Positions 2 through 32,080 of a stretch of DNA of 64,000 bases are shown piece after piece. The notes below the pieces were generated by a model, which searched no databases, was not told where the DNA came from, and saw only the letters and a program-made list of their open reading frames with translations. This DNA comes from Caldicoprobacterales bacterium (GTDB lineage Bacteria > Bacillota > Clostridia > Caldicoprobacterales > UBA3941): assembly GCA_050949255.1 (NCBI GenBank), contig JBMNFJ010000016.1:12665-76664 (forward strand), given 5' to 3'. The position numbers and the translations under genes were made by a program. The stretch's first letter is position 1. The number at the start of each line of letters is the position of its first letter.

Positions 2-1252
2 GAAGAATTGGTAGAGTCCCTGGAACGACCCAGACGGATAATGTTAATGATAAAAGCGGGTTCGCCAGTGGATTCCACCATTACATCACTATTGCCACTA
101 CTGGAAGAAGGGGATATAATAATAGATGGCGGTAATTCCTATTTTAAGGATACCGTTAGGAGGATTTCGGAATTAGAACAAAAGGGAATTCATTATTTAG
201 GTGCGGGCGTTTCAGGGGGAGAGGAAGGAGCCCTGGAAGGTCCCAGTATTATGCCAGGCGGAAGTAGGGAGGCCTGGGAAAGCGTCAAGGAAATACTAAA
301 GGATATATCCGCAAAAGTAGAAGGCAATATTCCATGTTGTGACTATATCGGTCCCGGTGGTTCCGGCCATTATGTAAAGATGGTACATAACGGTATCGAA
401 TACGGAGATATGCAGCTTATTAGCGAGGCCTATTATTTTATGAAGGAATACCTTGGTATGTCGGCTCTCGAAATGAAAGACGTATTTGAGGAATGGAACA
501 AGGGAGAATTGAACTCTTATCTGATTGAGATAACTGCACATATATTGGGGAAAGTGGACGAGGAAACCGGGAAGCCTTTGGTAGACGTTATCTTAGATAA
601 GGCAGGTAATAAAGGGACTGGCAAATGGACATCCCAGGAAGCCTTGGAGTTAGGTGCAGTCGCCCCTACAATTGCCGATGCCGTGTTCGCAAGATATCTG
701 TCAGCCCTTAAAGAGGAGCGGGTAAAAGCCTCCAAGGTGTTAGAAGGTCCACAACCGAGTTTAGATGGTACACCTACTGATAAAGAACAATTGATTCGGG
801 ATTTAGGCGGAGCCCTCTTAGCATCTAAAATCTGTTCCTATGCACAAGGGTTTCAACTGCTGAAAAATGCATCGGATACTTATGAATGGGAGCTAAAACT
901 AGGTGATATTGCCCTACTATGGAGGGAAGGGTGTATCATAAGGGCCCAATTCTTAAACAAGATAAAGGAGGCCTACGATAGAAATCCAGATTTAGAGAAT
1001 CTAATGCTTGACTCCTATTTCAGTGAGGTCTTACATAGAGCGCAGAAGGGATGGAGAAGGGTTATTGGCCTGGCGGTTGAAAACGGTATACCTGTATCAT
1101 CCTTTAGTTCGGCGCTGGCCTATTTCGATGGATATAGAAGAGAGACCCTGCCTGCTAATATGATTCAGGCACAGAGGGATTATTTTGGTGCCCATACCTA
1201 TGAACGCATTGATAAGGAAGGCATATTCCATACAGATTGGTTAAAAGCCTAG
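2..1252 (+). CDS. gnd: 6-phosphogluconate dehydrogenase (decarboxylating); 5' end cut by window edge
   Basis: The frame stays open to base 2 with no start codon. The translation ([62 protein letters not shown]) is the classic 6PGDH pattern. Confidence 0.95.
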
Positions 1253-1303
1253 GAATATAACTTTTTCACCGTAATACGATTATGACATCAAAGGGGTGTA
1301 AGG

Positions 1304-2746
1304 TTGAATATTCTTGCATTAGAGGCGAGCACTTCATCAGCTAAAGCTGTTATCTATTCAGATACTAAAGGAATTATTGCAGCCCGGGATCGGGCATATG
1401 ATCCAAATATAAGTAATGTGGTAACCCAGGATCCGGACGGTATATACAGGGCGCTGTTGGATTGTGGCGGCTCCCTGTTAGAATCCCACGGTAAGGATAT
1501 CCAAGGGGAAATCGATGCCATAGCTCTTTGCAGCACATGGCACAGCCTGTTAATTACCGATAAACAGGGTAAACCTGTTGATAGGATTCTCACTTGGGCT
1601 GACAACCGTTCAGCGGATATTGTTAACAGGTACAAGAAGGATACTGGGTTGGTAAATGATATCTATAAAAGGACAGGGTGTCCGGCCCATACCAATTTTC
1701 CCCTTTGGAAATGGATGCACTTTAAAGAAAATTGCGATATAGATACTACCTCCCTCCGTCTATCGTCCCAGTCTGATTACATATTCAAACGCATGACCGG
1801 AGATTGGGGGGTGTCACGTAGTGTAGCATCAGGCAGCGGTTTTTTGAACATCCATACTTTAGATTGGGATGAACATATTCTGGAATTTGCAGGTTTGGCC
1901 GCAGAGCAATTAGCTCCCTTACAGGATCCGGAATATACGGCTCCATTAGGGGCAGAAGCGGCCGAAGCGTTAAACGTAAGGGAAGGGATACCCGTGGTTA
2001 TTACCGGCCCTGACGGAGCGCTAAATCAGGTAGGCGCAGGGGCCATGGGTGAAGGGGTCATGACCATGTCTGTAGGTACCAGCGGGGCAATCCGAATGGC
2101 CACAGACAACCCTATATTGCCCGAGGTGCCATCAACCTGGTGCTACTATATTGCAGAGGGAAAAAGGCTGGCAGGGGCTGCTACATCCGGTGCCGGAAAT
2201 TGTGTCAACTGGTTCGTTAAAACCTTAAATAAAAATAAGTATAGCTATGATGACTTAGAGAGTTTCATAGACGAGACAAGGCTCATGGATGCACCAGTAT
2301 TTCTCCCATTTATGTTTGGGGAGCGTTCTCCAGGTTGGGAAGGCTCCAGACTGGGGGGATTTACACAACTTAGCGGCGACCATGGATTGGGACAGCTTTA
2401 TTATGCCGTTTTGGAAGGCATTTTGTTAAACATCTATCAATGCTATGAAATACTTACCCAAGTTGGTGGAGTTCCCCATGATATTAGGATCTCCGGGGGC
2501 ATAGAAAACTCCAAGTTTTGGCTCCAGATGGCAGCGGATATCTTCCAAAGAGAAATACAGACCTTTGATCTGGAGCACTCGTCTACCATGGGTGCCATAG
2601 CCATGGCACTTAAGGTCCTGGGGAGTATGAATTCCCTACAGGAGTTTAAACTAAAACCCAGGGAGACAATTGTCCCAAATAGGGATAAGGCCAAATTCTA
2701 CGAACACAGATTCCAAAAATATTTGGAATGGTACCATAGAGCCTGA
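1304..2746 (+). CDS. gntK: FGGY-family carbohydrate kinase, probable gluconokinase
   Basis: 480-aa ORF with a TTG start just after AAAGGGGTG. FGGY kinase pattern: N-terminal LALEASTSSAKA and C-terminal ISGGIENSKFWLQMAADIF. It lies 51 nt after gnd with no hairpin between, followed by eda and kdgK. Confidence 0.75.
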   Translation: MNILALEASTSSAKAVIYSDTKGIIAARDRAYDPNISNVVTQDPDGIYRALLDCGGSLLESHGKDIQGEIDAIALCSTWHSLLITDKQGKPVDRILTWADNRSADIVNRYKKDTGLVNDIYKRTGCPAHTNFPLWKWMHFKENCDIDTTSLRLSSQSDYIFKRMTGDWGVSRSVASGSGFLNIHTLDWDEHILEFAGLAAEQLAPLQDPEYTAPLGAEAAEALNVREGIPVVITGPDGALNQVGAGAMGEGVMTMSVGTSGAIRMATDNPILPEVPSTWCYYIAEGKRLAGAATSGAGNCVNWFVKTLNKNKYSYDDLESFIDETRLMDAPVFLPFMFGERSPGWEGSRLGGFTQLSGDHGLGQLYYAVLEGILLNIYQCYEILTQVGGVPHDIRISGGIENSKFWLQMAADIFQREIQTFDLEHSSTMGAIAMALKVLGSMNSLQEFKLKPRETIVPNRDKAKFYEHRFQKYLEWYHRA

Positions 2747-2853
2747 GTAGAATAGATAATGGTTTAAGGCTACAGGTATGTCCTATGGTAATGGACCATA
2801 CCGGAGGGCTTTATGATAAACAAAACATCTATTTAGCGAAAGGAGGAGCGGAC

Positions 2854-5105: not shown

Positions 5106-5915
5106 ATGTCAGTAAAAAAGGCGTTTGTGACGGGAGGAAGCAGGGGTATTGGCAGAGGAATTGCATGGGTATTGGCAAAGGCAGGTTATGATGTAGCTAT
5201 AACCTATAACTCTCAAAAGGAAGAAGCACAGTCCTTGGCGGCAGAAATAGAAGCCATGGGGAGAAAATGTTTCTATTACCAGGCCAGCCTGGAAAGGGCA
5301 GACGTACCGGAGGCTGTTACAGCTAAGGCTATAGAGGATCTGGGGGGCATAGATCTGCTGGTTTGCAACGCCGGCTTAACCAGAAAACACAGCTTGCTGA
5401 CCATGAGTGCCGACCAAATAGATTTTCTCTATGGACTCAATTATAGGAGCTACTTATTATGCTCCAAGGTTGCGGCAAACTATATGGTGGAAAACAAGAT
5501 CAAGGGTAATATCATCTTTATTGCTTCTACGAGGGGTATACGCTCCTATCCCGATGATTCCATCTATGGTTCGTTAAAGGCAGCGCTTATCCGTGGGGTC
5601 GAATCCCTGGCCTTGGAGATGTCTCAATACGGCATAAGGGTTAACTGTGTTGCACCGGGTGCTACCGCTATTCGAGGGAACTTTACCCATGAGGAACTGA
5701 CCTCAAGCAATGTTGCCAAGAAGATACCCTTGGGTAGGTTTGGTACTCCTAAAGAGGTAGGATATCTGGTTGAATTTTTAGCTTCTACCAAAGCGGACTA
5801 TATAACCGGTGCTACCATTAAAATCGATGGCGGCCTTATCCTGCCGGGTATGCCCGAGGACAATTCCGAGGATGCCGGCTATGGCTGGTCAAGGATGAGA
5901 AGAACCGTTTGGTAG
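5106..5915 (+). CDS. Short-chain dehydrogenase/reductase (SDR) family oxidoreductase
   Basis: TGGSRGIGRGIA cofactor motif, NAG, and the YGSLK (YxxxK) catalytic motif. RBS is GAGGGGG. Confidence 0.85.
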   Translation: MSVKKAFVTGGSRGIGRGIAWVLAKAGYDVAITYNSQKEEAQSLAAEIEAMGRKCFYYQASLERADVPEAVTAKAIEDLGGIDLLVCNAGLTRKHSLLTMSADQIDFLYGLNYRSYLLCSKVAANYMVENKIKGNIIFIASTRGIRSYPDDSIYGSLKAALIRGVESLALEMSQYGIRVNCVAPGATAIRGNFTHEELTSSNVAKKIPLGRFGTPKEVGYLVEFLASTKADYITGATIKIDGGLILPGMPEDNSEDAGYGWSRMRRTVW

Positions 5916-5930
5916 AAAGGGGATACAGGC

Positions 5931-6710
5931 ATGAGAGGGTTGCTAAGGAGATTCAAGCAGTCCTTAAGGGATGGAGAGTGTGTTATTGGTCCCTTTATGA
6001 AAACATGTGATCCGGCCTTCGTAGAAGTGGCGGGTTACGCAGGGTTTGACTTTGCCATTCTGGATATGGAACATGGTCCTATATCCGTAAAGGAAATGGA
6101 AAATAATATTCGCGCCGCCATAATATCCGAACTTGTTCCCATAGTAAGGGTACCGGATTCCAGCGAGACCAGTATTGGAAAAGCTCTGGATATTGGTGCC
6201 ATGGGGGTACAAGTACCCCAGATACAGAATGCCCGGCAGGCGGGGGAAGTTATCCAAAGGGCTAAGTTCTCTCCCAAAGGCGAACGAGGCCTATGCCGCT
6301 TCGTTAGGGCAGCAAACTACTCTGCTCTAGATCGATATGAGTACTTTGAAACAGCTAATGAGACCTTGGTTATTCTGCAGTTGGAGGGACAGGAGGCCAT
6401 GGATAACCTGGATGAGATCCTGGAGGTAGAGGGAATAGACGTCCTGTTTATCGGGCCCTATGACCTATCCCAATCCCTGGGTATCCCCGGGGATGTTACA
6501 AATCCCAAGGTAATAGAACAGATGGAATACATTGTAAATAAAGCCAAAGCAAATGGTATAGTGGTGGGTACTTTTATTGACGAACCGGATTCGGTGGATT
6601 TTTGGAAGCAGGGCGGAGTACAATACTTCTCCTATTCGGTAGATGTAGGTATATTTTTAGACGCATGTAAAAATATCGTAGGATATTTGCGACCCAAAGA
6701 GGAGGTATAA
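5931..6710 (+). CDS. HpcH/HpaI-family 2-keto-3-deoxy-sugar-acid aldolase
   Basis: FVEVAGYAGFDFAILDMEHGP, RVP, and the QVPQI...FSPKGERG pattern of class II HpcH/HpaI aldolases. It starts 15 nt after the SDR gene. Confidence 0.8.
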   Translation: MRGLLRRFKQSLRDGECVIGPFMKTCDPAFVEVAGYAGFDFAILDMEHGPISVKEMENNIRAAIISELVPIVRVPDSSETSIGKALDIGAMGVQVPQIQNARQAGEVIQRAKFSPKGERGLCRFVRAANYSALDRYEYFETANETLVILQLEGQEAMDNLDEILEVEGIDVLFIGPYDLSQSLGIPGDVTNPKVIEQMEYIVNKAKANGIVVGTFIDEPDSVDFWKQGGVQYFSYSVDVGIFLDACKNIVGYLRPKEEV

Positions 6711-6712
6711 TT

Positions 6713-7915
6713 ATGTCCAAAATAACAATAAGAAATGTAAAAGCGATACTAACGGCGCCGGCTGGTATCAATCTGATAGTCGTGAAGGTAGAAACCAGCG
6801 AACCGGGACTATATGGGCTTGGATGTGCTACTTTTGCCTATAGAGAGAAGCTGGTAGCATCTATGGTAGAGGACTATTTGGATCCCCTGTTAAAGGGCAG
6901 GGATGTCTCTAACATAGAGGATCTATGGCATCTGATGAACAACAACTCCTACTGGAGAAACGGACCGGTAACCAACAATGCAATTTCAGGGGTCGATATG
7001 GCCTTATGGGATATCAAGGGTAAATTGGCCAATATGCCCCTCTATGATCTTTTAGGTGGTAAATCAAGGGAAGGCGTTGCAGTCTATCGTCATGCAGACG
7101 GTAAAGATCTTGATACCATTACTGAGAATGTTCAAAAATTTATGGATCAGAATATCAGGCACATAAGGATACAATGGGGCGGATACGGTGGAGATGCAAA
7201 AGCCCTTAACAAGCCGGCAGGTGCTCCGGATGGCATATACTATTGTCCTGATCAGTACATAAGGAATACCATAAAGCTCTTTGAGCATGTCCGAGGCAAG
7301 TTGGGAGACCAGGTTGAACTGTTGCACGATGTTCATGAAAGGATCCCGCCCATCGATGCAATCAGATTAGCTAAGGCTCTGGAACCTTATAGGCTGTTTT
7401 TCTTAGAGGACGTACTATCTCCTGAGCAGGGAGACTGGCTTAAAATATTGCGTCAACAGAGTTGCACTCCCATTGCAATAGGTGAGCTTTACAACAACCC
7501 CAAAGAGTGGGATTATTTAATATACAATAGACTTATAGATTTTATCAGGGTTCATATCAGTCAGATAGGCGGAATAACCCCTGCCAGAAAACTGGCCATC
7601 TTCTGTGAACAATTCGGCATAAGAACCGCCTGGCATGGTCCGGGAGACGTTTCACCGGTGGGTCATGCAGCCAACGTACATTTAGATCTGGTATCCCATA
7701 ACTTTGGTATTCAAGAGTGGGCCGGTATATCCGAGACCCTCCACGAAGTCTTCCCCGGCAGTCCGATTCTCAAAGACGGATATGTTTATGCCAATGATAA
7801 GCCGGGATTGGGAATTGACATTAATGAGGAATTAGCTGCTAAGTATCCATGTCAGACAAGGGTAACCCAATGGACCCAGACTAGATTGCCCGACGGAACT
7901 CTCTATACTCCTTAA
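6713..7915 (+). CDS. Enolase-superfamily sugar-acid dehydratase, D-mannonate dehydratase (ManD/RspA) subgroup
   Basis: N-terminus LIVVKVETSEPGLYGLGCATF...YWRNGPVTNNAISGVDMALWDIKGKLANMPLYDLLGG closely follows the ManD/RspA pattern. It starts 2 nt after the aldolase stop. Confidence 0.85.
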   Translation: MSKITIRNVKAILTAPAGINLIVVKVETSEPGLYGLGCATFAYREKLVASMVEDYLDPLLKGRDVSNIEDLWHLMNNNSYWRNGPVTNNAISGVDMALWDIKGKLANMPLYDLLGGKSREGVAVYRHADGKDLDTITENVQKFMDQNIRHIRIQWGGYGGDAKALNKPAGAPDGIYYCPDQYIRNTIKLFEHVRGKLGDQVELLHDVHERIPPIDAIRLAKALEPYRLFFLEDVLSPEQGDWLKILRQQSCTPIAIGELYNNPKEWDYLIYNRLIDFIRVHISQIGGITPARKLAIFCEQFGIRTAWHGPGDVSPVGHAANVHLDLVSHNFGIQEWAGISETLHEVFPGSPILKDGYVYANDKPGLGIDINEELAAKYPCQTRVTQWTQTRLPDGTLYTP

Positions 7916-7940
7916 TATTAATCTTGTGGAGGCGATGACT

Positions 7941-8936
7941 ATGAAAATTCTAGTCACAATGCCAAAATCTGGAGTCAGGGACGGTTTCTTTCCTTCCCGG
8001 GTAGTAAAAAAGTTAGAATCAATTGGAGAAGTTAAGTGGAATGAGACTTCGAATAATTTCAGCCCTGGGGAATTAAAGGAAAGGATTAAAGATGTAGAAG
8101 TCTGCATAGCTGGGTGGGGCAGTGCCAGATTTGATGAAGAAGTATTAAAAGATGCCAACAGGCTTAAGGTCATTGCCTATACCGGTGGATCCGTAGCCAA
8201 CATCGTAAGCGATTATCTCTATGATAAGGGTATTACCGTACTAAGCGGAAATGAAATCTATGCGGAATCGGTAGCTGAGGGTGTTCTCACTTATATCCTC
8301 ACCTCCTTGAGAAGGGTAATCTACTTTCAGAACCAGATCTTAGAGGGGAATTGGCCCCCGACGGAAGCATGGGACGAAGGAATTTTGGATCAAAGCATTG
8401 GGCTTATAGGATTTGGAGCGGTAGCAAGATATCTTGTAAGAATGCTGGAGCCCTTTAGGGTAAAGATATACGCCTATGACCCTTATGTGGACGATGAAGT
8501 CCTTCATAGCTATGGGGTGGAAAGGGCCAGCATGGATGAGATCTTTTCAAATTGCAAGATAATATCCGTCCATGCCGCCAAGACTCCTGAGACCTATCAT
8601 TTAGTAGGTAAGAAACACCTGGAATCCATCCAGGATGGGGGACTTTTTGTCAATACAGCCAGGGCCAGCATTGTTGATACTGAAGCCCTTATAGGAGAGC
8701 TTAAGAAAAACAGATTTAATGCGGTAATAGATGTATTTGACGAAGAACCACTACCACCGGATAGTCCATTAATCGGCTTACCCAACGTACTTTTGCAACC
8801 CCATCGGGGGGGACCAACAACCGATAGATGGGAAATTGTCACCTTAAGCCTAATAGAGGATGTCTTAAAGGTATTGGCCGGGGAGAAGGCCCGGCTGGAG
8901 ATAAAAAAAGAATATGCCATGGCCATGACCCAGTAG
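7941..8936 (+). CDS. D-isomer-specific 2-hydroxyacid dehydrogenase family protein
   Basis: GLIGFGAVARYL NAD-binding fold and LLQPHRGGPT catalytic-His region. ATG 7941 sits 8 nt after GGAGG (7928-7932). The ORF-track start at 7926 is too close to, or inside, the RBS. Confidence 0.8.
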   Translation: MKILVTMPKSGVRDGFFPSRVVKKLESIGEVKWNETSNNFSPGELKERIKDVEVCIAGWGSARFDEEVLKDANRLKVIAYTGGSVANIVSDYLYDKGITVLSGNEIYAESVAEGVLTYILTSLRRVIYFQNQILEGNWPPTEAWDEGILDQSIGLIGFGAVARYLVRMLEPFRVKIYAYDPYVDDEVLHSYGVERASMDEIFSNCKIISVHAAKTPETYHLVGKKHLESIQDGGLFVNTARASIVDTEALIGELKKNRFNAVIDVFDEEPLPPDSPLIGLPNVLLQPHRGGPTTDRWEIVTLSLIEDVLKVLAGEKARLEIKKEYAMAMTQ

Positions 8937-9388: not shown

Positions 9389-10456
9389 TCAGCAGAATCT
9401 TGGCATTGGATTTTGTTCATGACAAAGATTTATAACATGTATTTGTTGTTTAACCTGCTGGGGCGTAACTATAAGGGGTGTCCCTTCTGTCAGATGACCA
9501 TAGATGTTATCATAGAACCGTTTTACCGCATGGTTAAATACACCGGGATCCTCTACACTCCATGTTTCCTCGGCCCAGTATAGTGTTTCGCTGCAATACA
9601 TAGGCAGACCCTGTTCGTCTTTGAGGGGTGTCTTTATCAGTTCCCGCCTTGGAGCCACCCTTTCGTCATAATACCTCCACTTAATATGGGTCATACTTCC
9701 TTCAAGGCCGCCCCTAGTACCCTGGACCTTATAGGTATATGTAGGATAAGCATCACAGGAGGAAATCTCTATGTCTATCAACGGGCGGTCTGGAGCTGTA
9801 AGGATTAACTTTACATAGTCCTCTGCATCCCCGAAGGTGTTGGCCCTATCCATTTTGCAAAATACCTGGGGCATACCGTCATAGTAATCGAGGAGATTAA
9901 GGGCTTGATCCAAAGGGTGTGGGCCTGTGTTATAGAGGCTGCCGGCAACGAATTCCTGACAACATTGCCAGTCCCACCTTCTGGCGAAGCCGTTGAAGTT
10001 AATGCTTATCTGTACGATCCTGCCAAGGATTCCGGAGTTTATTACATCCTTGACCTTTTCAAAGTAAGGCGCAAACCTGGACTGCTGAAAGATAGCAAAC
10101 ATCCGCTTATTTGCCTTTGCTGCATCTATCATTGCCTGGACCTCTTCCGGGGTCCTGGCACAGGGCTTTTCCGTTAGAACGTTGAACCCATTATTTAATA
10201 AGTCAATAGTGGTGTGAGCATGCATATGGCTGAAGGATGCGTTAACTACGAGGTCAATGTCGGATCTTCCAAAGAGTTCCTGGTAGTTTTCATAGGTGTC
10301 ACACCCATATTCCTCTGCTGCCCTGTTTCGCCGATCCTCCAATGCCTCTACAACTGCTACCACTTTAAATCTATCCGGATCCGTTAAGAAGTATTTGCCG
10401 TGTATATCCCTCCCGCTACGTCCCTGTCCAATGATAGCCAGATTTAGCTTTTTCAT
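9389..10456 (-). CDS. Gfo/Idh/MocA-family NAD(P)-dependent oxidoreductase
   Basis: MKKLNLAIIGQGRSGRD Rossmann N-terminus. Start CAT is at 10454-10456 with GGGAGG about 10 nt upstream on the minus strand. The longer ORF-track start (10549) has no RBS. Confidence 0.85.
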   Translation of the reverse strand: MKKLNLAIIGQGRSGRDIHGKYFLTDPDRFKVVAVVEALEDRRNRAAEEYGCDTYENYQELFGRSDIDLVVNASFSHMHAHTTIDLLNNGFNVLTEKPCARTPEEVQAMIDAAKANKRMFAIFQQSRFAPYFEKVKDVINSGILGRIVQISINFNGFARRWDWQCCQEFVAGSLYNTGPHPLDQALNLLDYYDGMPQVFCKMDRANTFGDAEDYVKLILTAPDRPLIDIEISSCDAYPTYTYKVQGTRGGLEGSMTHIKWRYYDERVAPRRELIKTPLKDEQGLPMYCSETLYWAEETWSVEDPGVFNHAVKRFYDNIYGHLTEGTPLIVTPQQVKQQIHVINLCHEQNPMPRFC

Positions 10457-10650
10457 ATATCGATAACCTCCCTTGGATATGTTTAGTAAATAATGGTCCC
10501 CTTCATTTGTATGTAGCGTTGATGTTAACAATATGATATATGTCCCCATAGGTTATTGTCAATTATTTTCAGAATATGATATGATTGTATTACTGGGATT
10601 CAGCCTTTAGCGTTGAATCAGGCAATTCCCGGTGTGATTTGAAAGAGAAA

Positions 10651-10677
10651 TGGACTTAAGTCATTTTCCTATATAAT
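10651..10677 (+). promoter_or_regulatory. Candidate promoter (-10 TATAAT at 10672-10677) with an overlapping 10-bp palindrome GACTTAAGTC (10653-10662)
   Basis: Read directly, 65 nt upstream of the LarA-like start. The -35 is weak. The palindrome is perfect. Confidence 0.35.
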
Positions 10678-10741
10678 GCGGACATGTTATTAGATATGGT
10701 TCCTGTTGCAAATTTACGATAATTAAGTCGAGGTGAGAGCG

Positions 10742-12019
10742 ATGATTAGACTTAGCATTACTTCAGATGATGGCCAAGGTCTTCATGAAAAAAGCATTAG
10801 GGAAGCCTTGGACCAATCTTTGCAAGAGCAAAGGGCAAGCTTAAGAAAGGTTTTATTAATCCCACCGGATTTAACCAGGGCACATTCCGGGGCTGGGGAT
10901 ATTACCAGGATGTACTACCAGCTTCTTAAGGATGTTTGTAAGGTGGATATTATGCCCGCATTGGGGACCCATATGCCTATGACTCATGATGAAATAGATC
11001 TGTTTTTTGGGGAGGAAATTCCAAAAGAATCTTTCATAGTACACAACTGGAGGACGGATGTAGTCAAAGTCGGTCAGGTGCCTGGTCAGTATATATCTGA
11101 AATATCCGAAGGGCTTGTGAATGAGCCCATAGATGTGGAGATCAATAAGAGGCTGCTTGATAAAAGCTACGACCTAATCATCTCCATAGGGCAGGTAGTG
11201 CCCCATGAAGTGGTGGGCATGGCCAACTACAGCAAGAATATATTTGTGGGCTGCGGTGGTATGGACATAATAAACAAGAGCCATATGCTAGGTGCGATTT
11301 ACGGAATGGAGAAGATCATGGGAAGGGATCATTCTCCGGTTCGAAAGGTATTTGACTATTGCCAGGAACACTTTACCAAGGAGATACCCCTCATGTATGT
11401 ATTGACGGTGACCACTGCCAAAGAAGACAAGGTGGATATCCATGGATTGTTTATTGGCAACGATAGATCCCTGTTTGAGGAGGCTGTAAAGCTAAGCCAG
11501 GAAAAGAATCTGGAATATGTGGACAGACCCTTTAAAAAGGTCGTGGTTTACTTGGATGGAAGGGAATTTAAGAGTACCTGGCTGGGAAATAAATCCGTCT
11601 ACAGGACCCGGATGGCCATTGAGGACGGTGGGCAGCTTATCGTCCTGGCTCCCGGAGTCAGGCAGTTTGGCGAAGACCAAGAAAACGACAGACTAATACG
11701 AAAGTATGGTTATGCAGGCAGGTTAAAGGTATTGGAACTGTTTAAGGAGAATCAGGATCTTCAGGAAAATCAATCCGTGGCAGCCCATCTTATCCATGGA
11801 TCATCCGATGACAGGTTCTCAATCACCTATGCTCCGGGCCATCTGACCCGGGAAGAGGTGGAAGAGGTCAACTACAACTATATGCCCTTAAAAGAAGCTT
11901 TAGTAAAATATGATCCGAAAAAATTAAAGGATGGATACAATATTCTTGAAGACGGAGAGGAGATCTTTTATATAAGTAATCCGGCTCTGGGGTTATGGGC
12001 CGATAGAAGCAAATTTTGA
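10742..12019 (+). CDS. LarA-superfamily (DUF2088-type) protein; putative nickel-pincer-cofactor-dependent 2-hydroxyacid/sugar-acid epimerase
   Basis: ATG 10742 follows GAGGTGAG. Segments PPDLTRAHS, ALGTHMPMTHDE and PHEVVGMANYSKNIFVGCGGMDIINKSH parallel LarA SSDHTRPVPS, ATGFHRPSTHEE and SH174-x9-K184-x15-H200, with identical spacing. The LarA sequence is from memory. Confidence 0.65.
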   Translation: MIRLSITSDDGQGLHEKSIREALDQSLQEQRASLRKVLLIPPDLTRAHSGAGDITRMYYQLLKDVCKVDIMPALGTHMPMTHDEIDLFFGEEIPKESFIVHNWRTDVVKVGQVPGQYISEISEGLVNEPIDVEINKRLLDKSYDLIISIGQVVPHEVVGMANYSKNIFVGCGGMDIINKSHMLGAIYGMEKIMGRDHSPVRKVFDYCQEHFTKEIPLMYVLTVTTAKEDKVDIHGLFIGNDRSLFEEAVKLSQEKNLEYVDRPFKKVVVYLDGREFKSTWLGNKSVYRTRMAIEDGGQLIVLAPGVRQFGEDQENDRLIRKYGYAGRLKVLELFKENQDLQENQSVAAHLIHGSSDDRFSITYAPGHLTREEVEEVNYNYMPLKEALVKYDPKKLKDGYNILEDGEEIFYISNPALGLWADRSKF

Positions 12020-13619: not shown

Positions 13620-15140
13620 ATGGGTAGCATGCCGAAAAATCGCATATTAAGGATTCACAAAAGTGACAGTGTAGCAGTTGTTCTTAGACCTATAAATAAA
13701 GGACAGGTATTGGATATAGGCAATAGTAAAATCAAGGCAACAGAAGATATCGGGGTAGGACATAAGATGGCTGTCCGAGATATAGCAAAGGGAGAGGATA
13801 TCATCAAATATGGGGCGTCCATTGGACACGCCACCATGCCTATAAGGATGGGTAGCCTGGTGCATACCCATAATTTAACTACCAATTTATCCGGTCTGCT
13901 TGATTACACCTATGAACCCCAATTCCAAACCTTACCGGAATCTGAAAACGATAATATTCCTACTTTTAGTGGATATTTGAGGCCTAATGGGGACGTAGGG
14001 ATAAGGAATGAAGTATGGATAATAAACACCGTCGGATGTGTAAACAAGGTTACCGAAAGGTTGACTCATTCTGCCAGGCAGCATTTTAAAGGTCGAAAGG
14101 TAGATGGCATACACTTTTTTTCTCATCCCTATGGATGTTCCCAGTTGGGAGACGATCATAAAAATACCCAAAACATTCTGGCGGGTTTAGTAGACCATCC
14201 CAACGCTGGTGGAGTGTTGGTGTTGGGATTGGGATGTGAAAACAACAACATAGAAGAATTTAAAAAGGTATTAAAAAAGCGGGGCTCTATTGATACAAAC
14301 AGGATTAAGTTTTTAAACACCCAGGATGTAGAGGACGAACAAGAAGTAGGTATGGAAATTCTCGAAGATCTGGTTTCCTACGCTGAAGGCTTTTTTAGGG
14401 AGGAAATCCCCATATCCAAACTTAAGATAGGGTTAAAATGCGGAGGTTCCGATGCTTTTTCCGGAATCACCGGTAATCCGTTATTGGGTGCTTTTTCTGA
14501 TGCCCTGGTATCTCAGGGGGGTACCACCATATTGACAGAGGTACCCGAGATGTTTGGGGCAGAAACCATATTGATGAATCGTTGTGTAACAAAAGAGGTA
14601 TTTGAAAAATGCGTTACAATGATAAACAATTTTAAAGAGTACTTTATCCGCCACGATCAGGTTATATACGAGAACCCTTCCCCGGGAAACAAAGAAGGGG
14701 GTATCACCACTCTGGAGGAGAAGTCCTTAGGCTGCACTCAGAAGGGTGGGACCGGGCAAGTAGTGGATGTAGTGGGATATGGAGAACCGGTGACCGTACC
14801 CGGTCTTAACCTTTTGGACGGCCCGGGAAACGATATTGTGGCGGTAACAGCCTTGGTGGCCAGCGGTGCGCATATGGTGTTATTTACCACGGGAAGGGGG
14901 ACACCCCTGGGTGGGCCGGTACCCACAGTCAAGGTTTCTACCAATAGTGAGCTGGCCAAAAAGAAGAAGCATTGGATTGATTTTGACGCTGGTATACTCT
15001 TGGAAGATGGGGAGATGGGAAGTGTATCAAGGGAGTTTTTCCAGTACATTATCGATGTAGCTTCCGGTAGAATACTGGCTAAGAATGAGGAGCAGGATTT
15101 TCGAGAGATTGCTATATTTAAGGATGGGGTTACACTATGA
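13620..15140 (+). CDS. uxaA: Altronate dehydratase
   Basis: SAF-like N-terminus (IHKSDSVAVVL...GHKMA...IIKYGASIGHAT...VHTHN) plus a large UxaA/GarD C-terminal domain. The alternative start ATG 13629 is equally plausible. Confidence 0.9.
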   Translation: MGSMPKNRILRIHKSDSVAVVLRPINKGQVLDIGNSKIKATEDIGVGHKMAVRDIAKGEDIIKYGASIGHATMPIRMGSLVHTHNLTTNLSGLLDYTYEPQFQTLPESENDNIPTFSGYLRPNGDVGIRNEVWIINTVGCVNKVTERLTHSARQHFKGRKVDGIHFFSHPYGCSQLGDDHKNTQNILAGLVDHPNAGGVLVLGLGCENNNIEEFKKVLKKRGSIDTNRIKFLNTQDVEDEQEVGMEILEDLVSYAEGFFREEIPISKLKIGLKCGGSDAFSGITGNPLLGAFSDALVSQGGTTILTEVPEMFGAETILMNRCVTKEVFEKCVTMINNFKEYFIRHDQVIYENPSPGNKEGGITTLEEKSLGCTQKGGTGQVVDVVGYGEPVTVPGLNLLDGPGNDIVAVTALVASGAHMVLFTTGRGTPLGGPVPTVKVSTNSELAKKKKHWIDFDAGILLEDGEMGSVSREFFQYIIDVASGRILAKNEEQDFREIAIFKDGVTL

Positions 15141-15161: not shown

Positions 15162-16403
15162 ATGGAGCAATTAACTTCCAGGGAGAGGGTGAGGATATCT
15201 CTCAACCATCAGGAGCCTGACAGATTACCAATTGATTTTGGTGCCATGAGGTCGACGGGTATAAATGCCATTGCCTATAATAGGCTAAAGAAGTATTTAG
15301 GGATGAAAAATACCGAAACAAAGGTCTACGATATATATCAGCAACTGGCAGAACCGGAAGAGGCAATAATGAAGATTATGGGTGCAGATGTTGTCCAGCT
15401 GCATAGATACAGGCCGGCTTTTGGGATTGACATTGCTAACTGGAAGCCGGGAAAGCTGATGGATGGGTCCGACTGTTTAGTCCCCAGGGATTTTAATCCT
15501 GTAGAAAACTCCAGAGGCGATCTGGATGTTATTAAAGATGATAAGGTCATTGCCAGAATGCCCAAAGGAGGATATTATTTTGATCCCATGTACCACCCAT
15601 ATGCAAATGTCAAAAGTATGGGGGATATAGATAAGATACCCGTTTCTGAGATTACCCATGAGGAGCTCTCCTACTTAAGGGAAAAGGCCAAGGAACTATA
15701 TGAGAAAACGGATTATGCCATCCTGGGTAGCTTTGGCGGCAATATTTTGGAAGCCGGCCAATCGGATTGGGGATATGAACGTTTTTTTATAGAGATGGCT
15801 CTTAACCCCGATATGGTCCACTACTATCTCGAGAGGAAAATCCAGGTTTACCTTAGGGATTTGGAAAAATATCTTAATGCCGTAGGGGAGTATATTGATG
15901 TTATTCAATTTGGGGATGATCTCGGAACCCAGGAAAACACTCAAATATCGATTCAGATGTATAGGGATATGATCAAGCCGTACCATACAAGGTTGTATCA
16001 ATATGTTAGAAATAATTTTCCCAATGTTAAAGTCTTTTTACATTCCTGTGGGGCTATCTATGATTTAATCCCAGATCTTATAGACGCAGGAGTTGAGATT
16101 TTAAACCCAGTTCAATTGTCTGCACGCAATATGGATCCAATTAAGTTAAAAAGGGAATTTGGCAACCATCTAACCTTTTGGGGCGGTGGATGCGATACCC
16201 AAACCACCTTGACCTTTGGGAGCCTTGAGGATATTAGAAATGAGGTAGAAGAGCTCATAGGGATATTTGCTCCCGGAGGCGGATTTGTGTTTACCCAGGT
16301 ACATAACATCCAGGCCGATATATCCCCTGAAAAAATTATGGAGTTATACAACACTGCAAATAGGGTAGGACGCCAGGTATACGCCACTGCACGGCAAATC
16401 TAA
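15162..16403 (+). CDS. Uroporphyrinogen decarboxylase (URO-D)/MtaA-CmuA-family protein, function unknown
   Basis: 413 aa. N-terminus SRERVRISLNHQEPDRLPIDFG is typical of non-HemE URO-D-like proteins, and there is an LHSCG motif. It starts 21 nt after uxaA, with RBS AAGGGGGG. Confidence 0.7.
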   Translation: MEQLTSRERVRISLNHQEPDRLPIDFGAMRSTGINAIAYNRLKKYLGMKNTETKVYDIYQQLAEPEEAIMKIMGADVVQLHRYRPAFGIDIANWKPGKLMDGSDCLVPRDFNPVENSRGDLDVIKDDKVIARMPKGGYYFDPMYHPYANVKSMGDIDKIPVSEITHEELSYLREKAKELYEKTDYAILGSFGGNILEAGQSDWGYERFFIEMALNPDMVHYYLERKIQVYLRDLEKYLNAVGEYIDVIQFGDDLGTQENTQISIQMYRDMIKPYHTRLYQYVRNNFPNVKVFLHSCGAIYDLIPDLIDAGVEILNPVQLSARNMDPIKLKREFGNHLTFWGGGCDTQTTLTFGSLEDIRNEVEELIGIFAPGGGFVFTQVHNIQADISPEKIMELYNTANRVGRQVYATARQI

Positions 16404-16449
16404 AAGGGGATTATTATAGAGTATCTTGGTATTAGGGAGGAGAATTAAA

Positions 16450-17721
16450 ATGATAAATACTTACAAATGGAACACTTGGGCAACTAATGAACTTCAATCC
16501 CCTGAATTTTACAGGGATTCAGTCCATGGTGAAGACGTATTAAAGATCGCGTCAGGTGGAAAGTATTCTTATGGTAAGTGGTACTGCGATATTGATGATA
16601 TAGAGGAAAATACCGCCTATAGGTTTAAAGTGAAATATTACAGCGAAAATGTACCGATTGAAAAAACCAGTATAAGCGCTGTATTTACCTGGATCAAAGA
16701 GGATGGGGAATGGTTGGAACGGGGGTATATAGATGAAATAGCCATCTTGGAGGATGGATGGAGGAACTTGAGTAGGATTATTAAAGCACCCCGGGATGCA
16801 GCTTCCCTAAAGATTGAGTTAGGCTTGAGATGGCCGGGATCTAATGGTTATGTACTATGGAAGGAACCCTGTCTGGAAAGAGTAGATGATCCGGGCAGAA
16901 GGATTGTACGGGTGGCTACTACCTATATCGACCCCCGCATAGATACAGACACGGATATGGAGAGAAGGCTCGCCAGGATCTGCAAGGTTGTTGACGAAGC
17001 AGGTAACCAGGGAGCAGATATCATCTGCCTGAGCGAAACCATAAATGAAAGACTATTACCCCTGAATCTTGAGGAGAGGGCTCTACCCATTGATTGCTCC
17101 TTTACCCGGAAGATGAAGGAGAAGGCAAGGCAGTACAAGACTTATATAATATATTGCTTTTATGAAAGAGAAGATAGCTATACCTACAACACGGCGGTTT
17201 TGGTCAATAGAGAAGGCGAGATTGTTGGAAAATACCGGAAAACCCATCTACCCATGACCGAGGCGGAGGAAGGGGTAATACCGGGGACCGAATATCCTGT
17301 TTTTGATACGGATTTTGGGAAAATTGGAATACTTATATGCTGGGACCAGATGTTTCCCGAGCCGTCGAAGATATTGGCATTAAAGGGAGCAGAAATAATC
17401 TTTGTACCCACAGCCGGTGACGGACCGATACATACAGCAGCCCGTGCAGCGGAAAATGGCATATATATGGTGATATCCGGCATAGACAGGCAGGAGAATT
17501 CGCCCTGGATGCCCAGTAGGATCATTAACCCCATGGGGGAGGTTATAGGCCAGGTCGAGGAGAAAGACGAGGGCGTCTGTGTTACGGAGATAGATCTAAA
17601 CAAGAAATTCTACGCATATTGGCTATCTGCAGGTCCCTGTTACAGCGAGCCAAGAAATATTTATTTAAAAGAGCGTATGAATGGGACATATGATGAGGTT
17701 GTCCACGATAAGTACCAATAA
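16450..17721 (+). CDS. Carbon-nitrogen hydrolase (nitrilase superfamily) with an N-terminal extension of about 160 aa
   Basis: E-K-C triad context is ADIICLSE, YRKTHLP, GILICWDQMFPE. ATG 16450 follows GGGAGGAG. The N-terminal region has no recognisable catalytic motif and looks beta-sandwich/CBM-like. Confidence 0.75.
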   Translation: MINTYKWNTWATNELQSPEFYRDSVHGEDVLKIASGGKYSYGKWYCDIDDIEENTAYRFKVKYYSENVPIEKTSISAVFTWIKEDGEWLERGYIDEIAILEDGWRNLSRIIKAPRDAASLKIELGLRWPGSNGYVLWKEPCLERVDDPGRRIVRVATTYIDPRIDTDTDMERRLARICKVVDEAGNQGADIICLSETINERLLPLNLEERALPIDCSFTRKMKEKARQYKTYIIYCFYEREDSYTYNTAVLVNREGEIVGKYRKTHLPMTEAEEGVIPGTEYPVFDTDFGKIGILICWDQMFPEPSKILALKGAEIIFVPTAGDGPIHTAARAAENGIYMVISGIDRQENSPWMPSRIINPMGEVIGQVEEKDEGVCVTEIDLNKKFYAYWLSAGPCYSEPRNIYLKERMNGTYDEVVHDKYQ

Positions 17722-17820
17722 GATAGCCATAGAGTAACGCTCAATTTGCGCCTATAAAATAGAATAAATGTGTGGCGATAATAGCCGTGTATTTTACTAA
17801 GGGAGGAGCAGTCTTGTCAA

Positions 17821-18855
17821 ATGAATAGTATATTGCGTAAACGAAAGCCCGATTTCACCAATCTCCAAAAGGTATTGGAGTGTAAAAAGCCGGATAGACC
17901 GACCCTCTTCGAATTATTCATGAACGATTCCCTATACGAGATATTGACAGGTAGAAAAAGACCGAATAGGGAGGACGAACTTGAGCATTTAAAATTCGTT
18001 GTGGATGCCTTTGAAGCTGCTGGATATGATTATGCCACTACTCATGGATCAAAGTTTATGTTCATCGAGGGGCAGGAGAAACACAAGGAGACTATTTCCC
18101 TGAATGCCCGCGAGATAATATTTGATGAGAAGAGCTTTAGTGATTTTAAATGGGAGGATCCGGAAGACTATGACTATTCCAAGCTGGAGAAGATAGGGGA
18201 TTATCTCCCTCATGGGATGAAACTTGCAGTCATGGGACCGGGCGGCGTGTTGGAGAATGTAATATCCTTGACAGGCTATGACAATCTCTGCTACATGCTG
18301 TATGATGACCCCGAGCTATTAAAACAGGTATTTGACAATGTGGGACAAAGGCTGGTTAAATATTATGAAATAGCTGCTCAACACGATAGCGTTGGGCTGA
18401 TAATATCCAACGATGATTGGGGTTTTAACACCCAAACCTTCTTACCCCCCTGGGCTATGAGTGAATATGTTTACCCCTGGCACAAGAAAATAGTGGATAC
18501 GGCCCATAGGTATAATAAGCCTGTTATATTGCATTCATGTGGATATTATTTAGATACCATGGAGGTATTGATCACTGATCTTAATTACGATGGCAAACAT
18601 TCCTTTGAAGATAATATCCTCAGGGTAGAGGACTCATATGACAGGTGGAAGGGCAGAATAGCTATTCTGGGCGGTATGGATGTTAACTTTGTAATTGAGG
18701 CCTCGGAGGAGGATATAAAGAGAAGATCCCGTAATATGATAGAGAAGAGCCTGGACTGTGGCGGGTATGCCTTGGGCACAGGAAACAGTGTCCCTGAGTA
18801 TATACCCGTAGAAAAATATCTGGCCATGATTTCAGTTATCCATGATGTATATTAG
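17821..18855 (+). CDS. Second, divergent URO-D/MtaA-CmuA-family protein
   Basis: 344 aa, with KPDRPTLFELFMND N-terminus, an ILHSCG motif and GGMD. RBS is GGGAGGAG. Confidence 0.65.
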   Translation: MNSILRKRKPDFTNLQKVLECKKPDRPTLFELFMNDSLYEILTGRKRPNREDELEHLKFVVDAFEAAGYDYATTHGSKFMFIEGQEKHKETISLNAREIIFDEKSFSDFKWEDPEDYDYSKLEKIGDYLPHGMKLAVMGPGGVLENVISLTGYDNLCYMLYDDPELLKQVFDNVGQRLVKYYEIAAQHDSVGLIISNDDWGFNTQTFLPPWAMSEYVYPWHKKIVDTAHRYNKPVILHSCGYYLDTMEVLITDLNYDGKHSFEDNILRVEDSYDRWKGRIAILGGMDVNFVIEASEEDIKRRSRNMIEKSLDCGGYALGTGNSVPEYIPVEKYLAMISVIHDVY

Positions 18856-19265: not shown

Positions 19266-20228
19266 ATGGACGTTTTAGAACGAATAGGTAAAATCGGTTT
19301 GGTTCCGGTGGTTGTTTTGGAAAAGGCTTCAGATGGTCCGCCAGTTGCTGCGGCTCTTTGTGACGGCGGGATTCCCATTATGGAGATCACCATGCGTACA
19401 GATGCCGGAATTGATGCCATCAAAGCGGTGAAGGCGTCGAATCCCGAGGTTTTGGTTGGGGCAGGAACGGTTCTTACGCTGGATAAGTGTAAGGAATCGG
19501 TTGATGCCGGGGCGGAGTTCATTGTAAGCCCGGGATTTAATCCCAAAATTGTCGATTGGTGCGTAAAAAATGACGTTCCGATAACTCCCGGATGCGTTAC
19601 CCCGACCGAAATCGAAATGGCGTTGGATAAGGGCCTTCGGGTTCTTAAGTATTTCCCGGCAGGCGTCTATGGCGGCATAAAGGGTTGCACTGCTTTGCAG
19701 GGTCCCTATAAGTCCATGGGTCTTAAGTTTATTCCTACCGGCGGAATTAGTTTGAAAAATCTCGATGAATATTCCGATAAAGAATTCATCCACGCCATTG
19801 GTGGCGGTTGGTTGAGTAATCCGAAGGATATTGCGTCGGGCAACTTTGATGCGATTCGTGAGACGGCAAAGCTATCGATAGCTCAGCTCTTGGGCTTCGA
19901 GTTTGCCCATGTTGGAATCAACACGGCTGATGATGACGATTCTAAAAAAGTCGCCGAGGAATTTGATGCGGTATTCGGTTTTGGTGTTAAATATGGCAAC
20001 AGTTCAAACTTTGCCGGAAGTGGCATTGAAGTCATGAAAGGCGCGGGTCTTGGTAAAAATGGGCATCTTGCAGTAAAGACCAACAATGTTGGACGCGCCA
20101 TCCACTATCTCGAGAGCAAGGGCTTTACCGTTGACATGGAATCTGCAAAATATAAGGGCGACACCATGGTTGCCGTATACCTCAAAGAAGAGATCGGCGG
20201 ATTTGCGGTTCACCTGCTTCAAAAATAA
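19266..20228 (+). CDS. KDPG/KHG aldolase fused to a C-terminal VOC (glyoxalase-like) domain
   Basis: ATG 19266 lies 8 nt after AAAGGAG. The N-terminal ~205 aa is Eda-like (GLVPVVVL, IMEITMRT, LKYFPA, IPTGGI). The C-terminal ~110 aa (FAHVGINT...GHLAVKTNNVGRAIHYLESKGF...GGFAVHLLQ) follows the VOC pattern. Confidence 0.75.
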   Translation: MDVLERIGKIGLVPVVVLEKASDGPPVAAALCDGGIPIMEITMRTDAGIDAIKAVKASNPEVLVGAGTVLTLDKCKESVDAGAEFIVSPGFNPKIVDWCVKNDVPITPGCVTPTEIEMALDKGLRVLKYFPAGVYGGIKGCTALQGPYKSMGLKFIPTGGISLKNLDEYSDKEFIHAIGGGWLSNPKDIASGNFDAIRETAKLSIAQLLGFEFAHVGINTADDDDSKKVAEEFDAVFGFGVKYGNSSNFAGSGIEVMKGAGLGKNGHLAVKTNNVGRAIHYLESKGFTVDMESAKYKGDTMVAVYLKEEIGGFAVHLLQK

Positions 20229-20358: not shown

Positions 20359-20382
20359 AAGAGGCCTATGGCCTCTTTTTTT
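20359..20382 (+). terminator. Rho-independent terminator
   Basis: AAGAGGCC-tat-GGCCTCTT followed by TTTTT. Confidence 0.85.
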
Positions 20383-28765: not shown

Positions 28766-28806
28766 AGAAAGAAAGATCCTAGTTTATGGGATCTTTCTTT
28801 TTTATT
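28766..28806. terminator. Bidirectional rho-independent terminator between convergent genes
   Basis: AGAAAGAAAGATCC-loop-GGATCTTTCTTT, flanked by an A-run and a T-run. It overlaps the last codons of the minus-strand gene. Confidence 0.8.
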
Positions 28807-29519: not shown

Positions 29520-29654
29520 TGTAATCCTCCTAAAACTTCTACTCTCCCTATCATTTTCTTCTACTGTCAACATATTATACATAGTAAAATCATTGCTATA
29601 TAGCAGTTCTGACTATGTAATATGAAAAGTGTCACCTTATTTATGAAAAAAGTG

Positions 29655-31099: not shown

Positions 31100-31115
31100 A
31101 AAGAGGGTAAATAAT

Positions 31116-32015: not shown

Positions 32016-32080
32016 TACTTTGCATAAGACCCCTGGTGTAGGGTTTTATAGAAAAGCATAAAATAAAGGAGGTTATTAGA

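Follow-up and report, generated by a model that had tools for sequence, protein, structure and literature searches.

The larAH18 gene and its junction with uxaB

The locus raises the question of whether a LarA-type enzyme encoded directly upstream of uxaB and uxaA takes part in the catabolism of galacturonate. In a sequence-only reading of the window (the whole stretch of 64 kb that was analyzed), the gene was proposed to provide an unrecognized step that delivers altronate or tagaturonate to UxaB/UxaA. The evidence set out below points, with a probability of about 0.7, to another role, namely that of a GntE-type C2-epimerase of LarAH group 18 that likely converts D-mannonate to D-gluconate, the adjacency of uxaBA not implying an altronate or tagaturonate substrate. 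The gene, here called larAH18, and the elements downstream of it are as follows.

10742..12019, + strand: larAH18, predicted hexonate 2-epimerase dependent on the nickel-pincer nucleotide (NPN), of LarAH group 18 (GntE branch), 425 aa
12033..13559, + strand: uxaB, tagaturonate reductase (altronate oxidoreductase), 508 aa; NF002969, 666 bits (cut-off 359)
13620..15140, + strand: uxaA, altronate dehydratase, 506 aa; SAF, GD_AH_second and GD_AH_C domains
15162-16403, + strand: URO-D/MtaA-like gene of the apparent larAH18-uxaBA transcription unit
16426-17721, + strand: carbon-nitrogen hydrolase gene of the same apparent unit
17821-18855, + strand: second URO-D/MtaA-like gene of the same apparent unit
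19266..20228, + strand: KDPG/KHG aldolase (eda family) with a C-terminal extension of ~110 aa; TIGR01182, 215 bits (cut-off 156)
20359..20377, + strand: best plus-strand terminator-like hairpin, with 8 pairs and a T run behind them, where the unit likely ends

The ATG start codon of larAH18 is preceded at 5-6 nt by the ribosome-binding site GAGGTGA. Its TGA stop codon occupies positions 12017-12019 and is separated by 13 nt from the GTG of uxaB at 12033, itself preceded by a GAGGGGG site. This GTG start is supported because residues 1-504 of the product align with residues 1-483 of E. coli UxaB. A terminator-like hairpin was not found between larAH18 and uxaB, nor does the plus strand contain a site comparable to 20359..20377 between 10742 and 15140. 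Both the coordinates and the hairpin search agree with the sequence-only reading, which had described a 13-nt gap free of hairpins and a tight larAH-uxaB-uxaA unit led by larAH; the latter description is correct for this genome. The three genes are predicted to be co-transcribed.

As for the downstream pair, the UxaB of the window shows 47% identity to E. coli UxaB vs 27% to UxuB. Over 500 aa, the window UxaA is 54% identical to its E. coli counterpart, and on the galactarate dehydratase model it reaches only 283 bits, the cut-off being 731. On these scores, the pair is assigned to the UxaB and UxaA families and not to UxuB or GarD. A URO-D-like gene is located 3' of uxaA in the relative L091 as well.

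Upstream region

The leader of larAH18 was searched for regulatory elements. No known RNA in Rfam, riboswitches included, gave a credible match within the leader or the operon, and two DNA elements were detected.

10556..10585, + strand: promoter-like site, TTGTCA and TATGAT separated by an 18-nt spacer, with a TG preceding the latter (10 of 12 matches, extended -10)
10647..10668, strand not assigned: 22-bp near-palindrome GAAATGGACTTAAGTCATTTTC, 83% complementary

The first element lies within the 192-nt gap that separates larAH18 from a divergent GFO/MocA gene. Its TTGTCAATTATTTTCAG(A/G)ATATGATAT block is kept in L091 (87% identity), upstream of an MFS-larAH18-uxaB-uxaA cluster, and the site is predicted to act as a promoter. 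The near-palindrome is a possible operator.

Family membership, catalytic residues and fold

According to profile-HMM analysis, the larAH18 product matches Pfam Lar_N (PF09861; E 4.6e-16) and, over profile positions 3-410 of 411, NCBIfam NF052594 (E 2e-201; 669 bits, cut-off 500), which bears out the earlier assignment to the LarA superfamily. NF052594, named "nickel-dependent putative hexonate epimerase", corresponds to LarAH group 18 of Desguin et al. 2020 (PMC7583248). With this model, group-18 sequences from the literature reach 547-622 bits, and homologues linked to gnd also match it, with equal scores. Among solved structures, sequence matches were obtained with PDB 4NAR (E 7e-38) and with LarA (5HUQ; E 4e-5). 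The AlphaFold2 model of the product (pLDDT 89.6) has 4NAR, which is GntE2, as its best PDB match (TM-score 0.82), and its top 18 PDB matches are all LarA-family structures (TM-scores 0.50-0.82).

The residue correspondence with LarA and the spacing H174-x9-K184-x15-H200, both noted earlier by eye, were confirmed by the phmmer alignment to 5HUQ, which has no gaps across the motifs in question. In this alignment, D43/R46 correspond to D72/R75 of LarA, H77 to H108, H155 to H174, K165 to K184 and H181 to H200; the product has the spacing H-x9-K-x15-H. K284 corresponds to K298 in the published signature register. R46, K165 and H181 are also the equivalents of R41, K164 and H180 of GntE2. All cofactor-binding and catalytic residues, including D43, H77, H155 and K284, are invariant across 30 homologues, which points to purifying selection on function. 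The 20-residue signature D R H H E V K H V W L N K S A A L I H S (DRHHEVKHVWLNKSAALIHS) is identical to the group-18 consensus at 20/20 positions. The same 20 residues are found in homologues that are linked to gnd and not to uxaBA, and these positions, examined for a change in specificity within the clade linked to uxaBA, showed none. Judged by these features, the product is an intact-looking nickel-cofactor sugar-acid epimerase of an already curated family.

GntE2 (TM0442, PDB 4NAR) of Thermotoga maritima, a member of LarAH group 20, is a confirmed gluconate 2-epimerase that links mannonate to gluconate kinase and Gnd. Its catalytic and NPN-binding residues are all in register with those of the larAH18 product, although the two proteins belong to different LarAH groups and share 25% identity over the structural alignment. 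They differ in the specificity loop (E-S in GntE2, E-V here) and in the residue before the catalytic Lys (G in GntE2, N here).

Functional evidence also comes from LarAH15 of Phytophthora nicotianae (Urdiain-Arraiza et al. 2024; PMC11770544), a GntE with a kcat of 111 per s and a KM of 9.4 mM for D-mannonate. The cloning primer of LarAH15 encodes M-A-TLLFAE-(G), which corresponds to MTLLFAEG of P. infestans PITG_09435, a listed group-18 member. A search for the full LarAH15 sequence with a 43-aa fragment returned only a 67-aa fragment. LarAH15 is very likely a group-18 enzyme, as judged by this primer and ortholog match rather than by its full sequence, and it would then share its group and its predicted chemistry with the larAH18 product; it differs in being eukaryotic and in having no operon context.

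Genomic neighborhood of larAH18 and its homologues

A Pfam scan of the window covered 44 ORFs of at least 150 aa; four more of this length lie antisense to longer annotated genes, which they overlap. The following genes upstream of larAH18 bear on its role.

8..2746, + strand: gnd, truncated at the window edge (6-phosphogluconate dehydrogenase), and, at 1304-2746, an FGGY kinase gene, ~9 kb upstream of larAH18
2785-3498, + strand: KDPG aldolase of the lower isomerase pathway served by UxaB/UxaA
3600-4625, + strand: PfkB KDG-kinase-like gene of the same lower pathway

The score of gnd is 659 bits (cut-off 413). The FGGY kinase has gntK_FGGY as its best match, at 248 bits and below the cut-off of 649, and is most like gluconokinase. 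These two genes are partners conserved across the family, displaced by ~9 kb in this genome. None of the 44 ORFs gave a Pfam match to UxaC, LarB (AIRC) or LarC (DUF111) or a LarE-like match, and a tblastn search of the window with E. coli UxaC gave no hit, in line with the sequence-only reading, which had listed uxaC, larB, larC and larE as missing. The window also contains no recognizable D-mannonate oxidoreductase.

The conservation of the neighborhood was assessed in a tblastn-based census of 80 loci from other species, encoding proteins with 56-70% identity to the larAH18 product. The gnd gene is present in 57 of these loci, and in 56 of the 57 it lies on the same strand at a distance of at most 3 kb. 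A PfkB kinase gene is present in 37/80, an SDR gene in 29/80 and uxaC in 15/80, whereas uxaA and uxaB are present in none. In all four loci tested, the adjacent SDR scores 437-448 bits with NF006132 (cut-off 281), the model for D-mannonate oxidoreductase. The gene order in Clostridium sp. SYSU_GA19001 is uxaC-SDR-lacI-FGGY-gnd-larAH18, and its FGGY kinase scores 617 bits with the gluconokinase model. Such a census supports a coherent module of UxaC, SDR-type mannonate oxidoreductase, LarAH18, kinase and Gnd, which would turn glucuronate into ribulose-5-phosphate at no net redox cost. The module would be relevant to the anaerobic fermentation of pectin and glucuronoxylan, and also to the activities of a mannonate kinase and of a 6-phosphomannonate epimerase that have been reported for lactobacilli.

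A conserved pairing of LarA-like genes with uxaBA was not seen beyond close relatives: adjacency of larAH18 and uxaBA was found only in relatives with at least 83% identity, comprising three lineages (83-100%). The 83%-identity relative has gnd-FGGY kinase-larAH18-uxaB-uxaA-PfkB kinase as one operon, while relatives at 80%, 79% and 74% identity have gnd(-FGGY)-larAH18 without uxaBA. In the relatives with at least 83% identity, uxaBA looks like an addition to a gnd-kinase-larAH operon. The gene 3' of larAH18 in the relative L095 was checked as a possible truncated uxaB, which it is not.

Compared with group 18 as published, the larAH18 product has the same 20-residue signature and a full-length match above the model cut-off, and the conserved partners of the group, gnd and a kinase, occur in this genome region. 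The difference is the location of the gene directly 5' of uxaB-uxaA in this genome and in two close lineages, an arrangement seen in 0/80 loci of other species. In the published context table (PMC7583248), altronate dehydratase is given only for group 5 and not for group 18, and group 19 is the only one listed with COG0246, the mannitol/altronate dehydrogenase family. The juxtaposition of larAH18 and uxaBA is a lineage-level operon rearrangement in a few close relatives and is no evidence of a new pathway.

Substrate and proposed role

According to the published grouping (PMC7583248), the enzymes of LarAH groups 19 and 20 are gluconate 2-epimerases and those of group 18 are predicted hexonate epimerases. 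NPN-dependent epimerization of D-mannonate to D-gluconate has been measured only for GntE1, GntE2, LarAH10 and LarAH15. The best reading is that larAH18, a member of a known curated family, likely encodes a GntE-type enzyme that brings hexuronate-derived mannonate to 6-phosphogluconate. We infer the substrate, the direction of flux and the supply of cofactor.

By analogy with LarA, the C2 hydroxyl of the hexonate would be oxidized transiently to a 2-keto acid, with a hydride passing to NPN, and the hydride would then be handed back to the opposite face of the 2-keto acid. H77 and H155 would act as the acid/base pair, and the NPN cofactor would be tethered through Lys of the larAH18 product. 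In the proposed route, glucuronate would be converted to fructuronate by UxaC, fructuronate to mannonate by D-mannonate oxidoreductase, mannonate to gluconate by the larAH18 epimerase, gluconate to 6-phosphogluconate by the kinase, and the latter to ribulose-5-phosphate by Gnd. The mannonate-to-gluconate route would be a redox-neutral alternative to KDG-forming dehydration. Since the window contains no recognizable D-mannonate oxidoreductase or UxaC, the local source of mannonate is not seen. The gene adjoining the epimerase gene is uxaB, whose product forms altronate, in the Caldicoprobacterales lineage and a mannonate-forming SDR gene elsewhere. In this lineage, the epimerase gene would have become co-transcribed with uxaB-uxaA of the altronate branch for galacturonate because a combined operon (gnd-kinase-larAH18-uxaB-uxaA-kinase) formed and was later split.

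The KM of characterized GntEs for free D-mannonate is high (9.4 to 120 mM), so the native substrate could be a related molecule. One such molecule is 6-phospho-D-mannonate, in which case the adjacent kinase would act on mannonate first and the epimerase product would feed Gnd directly. This alternative is unlikely, although it agrees with the high KM in every assayed GntE, with the kinase of the conserved neighborhood being mostly PfkB and not a canonical gluconokinase, and with the score of the window FGGY kinase far under the gluconokinase cut-off (248 against 649 bits). Free D-mannonate is nevertheless turned over by LarAH15 and GntE2 at 111 to 197 per s; the FGGY kinase of the Clostridium sp. 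operon, with 617 bits against 649, comes close to a gluconokinase equivalog, and no phosphate-binding feature was identified in the enzyme. Phosphorylated hexonates, as well as altronate and allonate, are outside the published substrate panels. The phosphorylated-substrate alternative equates LarAH18 with the orphan 6-phosphomannonate 2-epimerase seen in extracts of Lactobacillus suebicus.

An epimerase acting within the galacturonate branch, for example on D-altronate to give D-allonate or on tagaturonate at C5, and supplying or drawing from UxaB/UxaA, is quite improbable. The tight coupling to uxaB across a terminator-free gap of 13 nt and the retention of uxaBA adjacency in three lineages (83-100% identity) would fit such a role, as would the position of UxaB, which there takes the place beside the epimerase that the mannonate-forming SDR has elsewhere. 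In addition, altronate and allonate appear to lie outside every LarAH substrate test; the word "altronate" is absent from the main text of both LarAH papers, and no paper containing both NPN-enzyme and altronate terms was found in the literature searched. Against this, the 20/20 signature residues are the same as in gnd-linked homologues, uxaA and uxaB are absent from the 80 loci of other species, and in the relative L089 the epimerase gene is still directly 3' of gnd-FGGY. UxaB, UxaA, KDG kinase and KDPG aldolase make up a full pathway without any epimerase, and no downstream route for D-allonate is known here. The claim of a step feeding altronate or tagaturonate to UxaB/UxaA is thus not sustained: the enzyme is an ordinary NF052594 member with the signature of homologues unlinked to uxaBA, its partners across the family are gnd, kinase, SDR and uxaC instead, and an oomycete enzyme, very likely of group 18, is a confirmed D-mannonate/D-gluconate 2-epimerase.

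A further version, in which the enzyme of the uxaBA-linked lineages may epimerize D-altronate, the product of UxaB, to D-allonate, or may act on a phosphorylated hexonate, is highly improbable. If true, altronate epimerization would be a new reaction of the LarA family and a new branch of hexuronate catabolism; together with the kinase and Gnd, it would take galacturonate to ribulose-5-phosphate in a redox-neutral way and dispense with UxaE. The latter (Rodionova et al. 2012, cited via PMC6978723) is reportedly a tagaturonate/fructuronate epimerase whose target in the keto-uronate is C3, the position adjacent to the carbonyl. Like the larAH18 product, it is an epimerase that re-routes hexuronate catabolism; however, it belongs to an unrelated protein family and acts on C3 of a keto-uronate and not on C2 of a hexonate. 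No UxaE homologue was noted in the window.

That the larAH18 product is catalytically idle in a genome devoid of the NPN-biosynthesis genes larB, larC and larE is extremely improbable: these genes are indeed missing from the 64-kb window and from the Pfam-annotated flanks of close relatives, but the cofactor-binding and catalytic residues are invariant across the 30 homologues, and lar genes are typically not beside larAH in group 18, which gives their absence from the window little weight.

Annotation of the larAH18 product

The practical value of these results lies mostly in annotation. The larAH18 product and many listed homologues are labeled "nickel-dependent lactate racemase" by JGI and "lactate racemase domain-containing protein" by NCBI. 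LarA of Lactiplantibacillus plantarum (PDB 5HUQ) shares with the product its fold and the equivalents of D72, R75, H108, H174, K184, H200 and K298, but the identity is only ~16%, and the LarA pocket residues F175/F176, Y294/Q295 and W358 are replaced by E/V, W/L and L, respectively. The larAH18 product is not regarded as a lactate racemase, whatever its name in some source annotations (JGI). Proteins so labeled are much more likely to be sugar-acid epimerases than lactate racemases.

Assignment of the larAH18 product

The gene under study, larAH18, and the promoter-like and terminator-like sites around it are located as follows.

10742-12019 (+): larAH18 ORF, 425 aa on translation
10556-10585: promoter-like element TTGTCA-18-TG-TATGAT, in the 192-nt gap 5' of larAH18
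20359-20377 (+): best plus-strand terminator-like site, 3' of a KDPG aldolase gene

The larAH18 product matches NCBIfam NF052594 with 669 bits (cut-off 500, E 2e-201). NF052594 is an existing equivalog model named [quoted passage not shown], where "18" denotes LarAH group 18 of Desguin et al. 2020 (PMC7583248). Group-18 sequences from the literature match it as well (ACP_2683, 622 bits; AciPR4_3673, 547 bits), and the published 20-position signature DRHHEVKHVWLNKSAALIHS is present in the larAH18 product with 0 deviations. Groups 18, 19 and 20 were put together on common active-site features, and epimerisation of D-mannonate to D-gluconate was demonstrated for groups 19 and 20 (PMC7583248). Since Pfam Lar_N (E 4.6e-16) and PDB 4NAR (GntE2 of T. 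maritima; E 7e-38) were matched in addition to NF052594, the likeness to the LarA family is, at the sequence level, far above chance, and the sequence-only reading was right in its superfamily assignment. The AlphaFold model, built from 30 homologues (pLDDT 89.6), has a TM-score of 0.82 with 4NAR; the significant PDB matches ranked under 4NAR are LarA-family structures only.

In the phmmer alignment with L. plantarum LarA (5HUQ/6C1W), the motifs quoted in that reading are free of gaps, with D43/R46, H77 and H155/K165/H181 aligned with D72/R75, H108 and H174/K184/H200, respectively, and the H-x9-K-x15-H spacing is the same, as had been proposed. The larAH18 product is a further member of a known, curated family, whose operon arrangement here is lineage-restricted. 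An identical protein is found on many metagenomic contigs, and the source organism, a Caldicoprobacterales bacterium, is known from metagenome-assembled genomes. Annotation labels conflict across the family: "nickel-dependent lactate racemase" (JGI), "nickel-dependent putative hexonate epimerase" (newer PGAP), and, at NCBI, "lactate racemase domain-containing protein" and "DUF2088 domain-containing protein". Of these names, lactate racemase is very probably a misnomer.

An experimental anchor is provided by Phytophthora nicotianae LarAH15, a specific D-gluconate/D-mannonate 2-epimerase (kcat 111 per s, KM 9.4 mM); every eukaryotic LarAH was placed in the GntE (D-mannonate/D-gluconate 2-epimerase) branch (Urdiain-Arraiza et al. 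2024, PMC11770544). Residues M-A-T-L-L-F-A-E-(G), as encoded by the forward primer for LarAH15, match MTLLFAEGSKTAELS where the LarA-like part begins in P. infestans PITG_09435, a group 18 protein in Desguin's table (PMC7583248). This N-terminal match strongly suggests that LarAH15 belongs to group 18.

Conserved gene neighbourhood

Flanks of 80 loci from species-representative genomes, encoding homologues with 56-70% identity, were surveyed by tblastn; with short contigs in many cases, each count is a minimum.

Genes near larAH18 homologues (tblastn census, lower bounds)
gnd (6-phosphogluconate dehydrogenase): 57/80; 56 on the same strand within 3 kb
PfkB-family kinase: 37/80
KduD-like SDR: 29/80
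uxaC: 15/80
FGGY kinase: 6/80
uxaA: 0/80
uxaB: 0/80

In all four loci tested, the SDR adjoining the epimerase is NF006132 "D-mannonate oxidoreductase" (437-448 bits, cut-off 281), and Clostridium sp. SYSU_GA19001 (74% identity) carries the full set uxaC-SDR-lacI-FGGY-gnd-larAH18, its FGGY kinase scoring 617 bits on the gluconokinase model, slightly below the 649 cut-off. Accordingly, the conserved module is read as a route that would lead from glucuronate via fructuronate to D-mannonate, then by LarAH18 to D-gluconate, and on through 6-phosphogluconate to ribulose-5-P. The same GntE logic was proposed for Thermotoga and demonstrated later for GntE2.

The combination of PfkB kinase, gnd, SDR and larAH18, in some loci with uxaC, recurs across L005-L084; examples are L006 6337-11269, L013 7599-13806 and L096 1604-9281. 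The module PfkB shares just 23-30% identity with the KDG-kinase-like PfkB of the window in 34 of 37 loci. It may act as a non-canonical kinase on gluconate or mannonate, and this bears on the mannonate kinase activity of L. suebicus, an orphan so far. Phosphorylation of mannonate before epimerisation is unlikely; in its favour, free-mannonate KM is high for every assayed GntE and the kinase of most modules is a PfkB protein, not a canonical gluconokinase.

Origin of the link with uxaB-uxaA

The genes 3' of larAH18 are indeed uxaB and uxaA: the UxaB product matches NF002969 with 666 bits and is 47% identical to E. coli UxaB versus 27% to UxuB, and the UxaA product is 54% identical to its E. coli counterpart. 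The absence of uxaC, larB, larC and larE from the window also held: none was found among the scanned ORFs of at least 150 aa (four ORFs, each overlapping a longer annotated gene on the opposite strand, were left out), and tblastn with E. coli UxaC gave no match in the window.

Gene order by identity to the larAH18 product
74%: gnd-larAH18
79% and 80%: gnd-FGGY-larAH18, then unrelated genes
83%: gnd-FGGY-larAH18-uxaB-uxaA-PfkB, closely spaced
87% (L091): MFS transporter-larAH18-uxaB-uxaA-URO-D-like ... KDPG aldolase-addB
100% (window): larAH18-uxaB-uxaA-...; gnd-FGGY-KDPG aldolase-KDG kinase ~9 kb upstream

The simplest history is that uxaB-uxaA(-kinase) joined a gnd-kinase-larAH18 operon, so that the lower-pathway genes for both hexuronates would have stood in one operon, and that this operon split afterwards. 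Specificity signatures of uxaBA-linked and gnd-linked homologues match exactly, so there is no sign of substrate change.

The link with uxaBA is not a conserved functional coupling, given the zero counts above. The sequence-only reading had suggested an unrecognised step, with the epimerase feeding altronate or tagaturonate into UxaB/UxaA; this suggestion is not supported. Altronate and allonate have apparently never been given to any LarAH, and UxaB here takes the place of the mannonate-forming SDR of other lineages; however, the unchanged signature and the lack of uxaA and uxaB in all 80 loci disfavour the new step and make this role very unlikely. Equally improbable is the most novel of the surviving readings, in which the enzyme would epimerise altronate or a phospho-hexonate and so open a new redox-neutral route for galacturonate.

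Transcription unit and other window genes

The larAH18 stop TGA (12017-12019) lies 13 nt before the uxaB GTG, as had been read; the larAH18 ATG has GAGGTGA just upstream and the uxaB start its own GAGGGGG site. Since no plus-strand terminator-like site was found from larAH18 to uxaA, in agreement with the reported lack of a hairpin, larAH18 is likely co-transcribed with uxaBA. The promoter-like element is also kept in the 87% relative, 5' of the MFS gene. No known RNA families were detected in the window transcription unit. A possible operator, the 22-bp near-palindrome GAAATGGACTTAAGTCATTTTC (10647-10668), stands 3' of the promoter-like site and 5' of the larAH18 ribosome-binding site; the genes next to it do not include a regulator.

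In L091, an MFS_2 (GPH-family) transporter gene (1317-2591) separates larAH18 from the conserved promoter region. The counterpart interval of the window (10550-10741) is without it; the transporter of the unit was therefore recently gained or lost.

Other genes of the window were as follows.

15162-18855 (+): URO-D/MtaA-CmuA-like proteins (413 and 344 aa) on either side of a carbon-nitrogen hydrolase extended N-terminally by ~160 aa; between uxaA and KDPG aldolase, same apparent operon
19266-20228 (+): eda-family KDPG/KHG aldolase, 320 aa, with the domain at residues 6-206 only and a C-terminal extension of ~110 aa
2785-3498: second KDPG aldolase, normal length
5106-8936 (+): SDR (NCBIfam matches include L-rhamnose 1-dehydrogenase), HpcH/2-keto-3-deoxy-sugar-acid aldolase, ManD-family dehydratase (415 bits, under the ManD cut-off of 550) and D-2-hydroxyacid dehydrogenase
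9389-10549: divergent GFO/MocA oxidoreductase
28779-29582 (-): DUF6062 protein, 267 aa, E 4e-62
36444-37490: LacI regulator, with the sugar ABC transporter/GH2 cluster

A URO-D-like gene also lies 3' of uxaA in the 87% relative. Such proteins are not known to play a part in hexuronate catabolism; that they demethylate 4-O-methylglucuronate is pure speculation. The 5106-8936 cluster looks like a non-phosphorylative sugar-acid pathway. The DUF6062 gene adjoins a xylose-isomerase-like TIM-barrel gene and the sugar ABC transporter/GH2 cluster (30113-36217).
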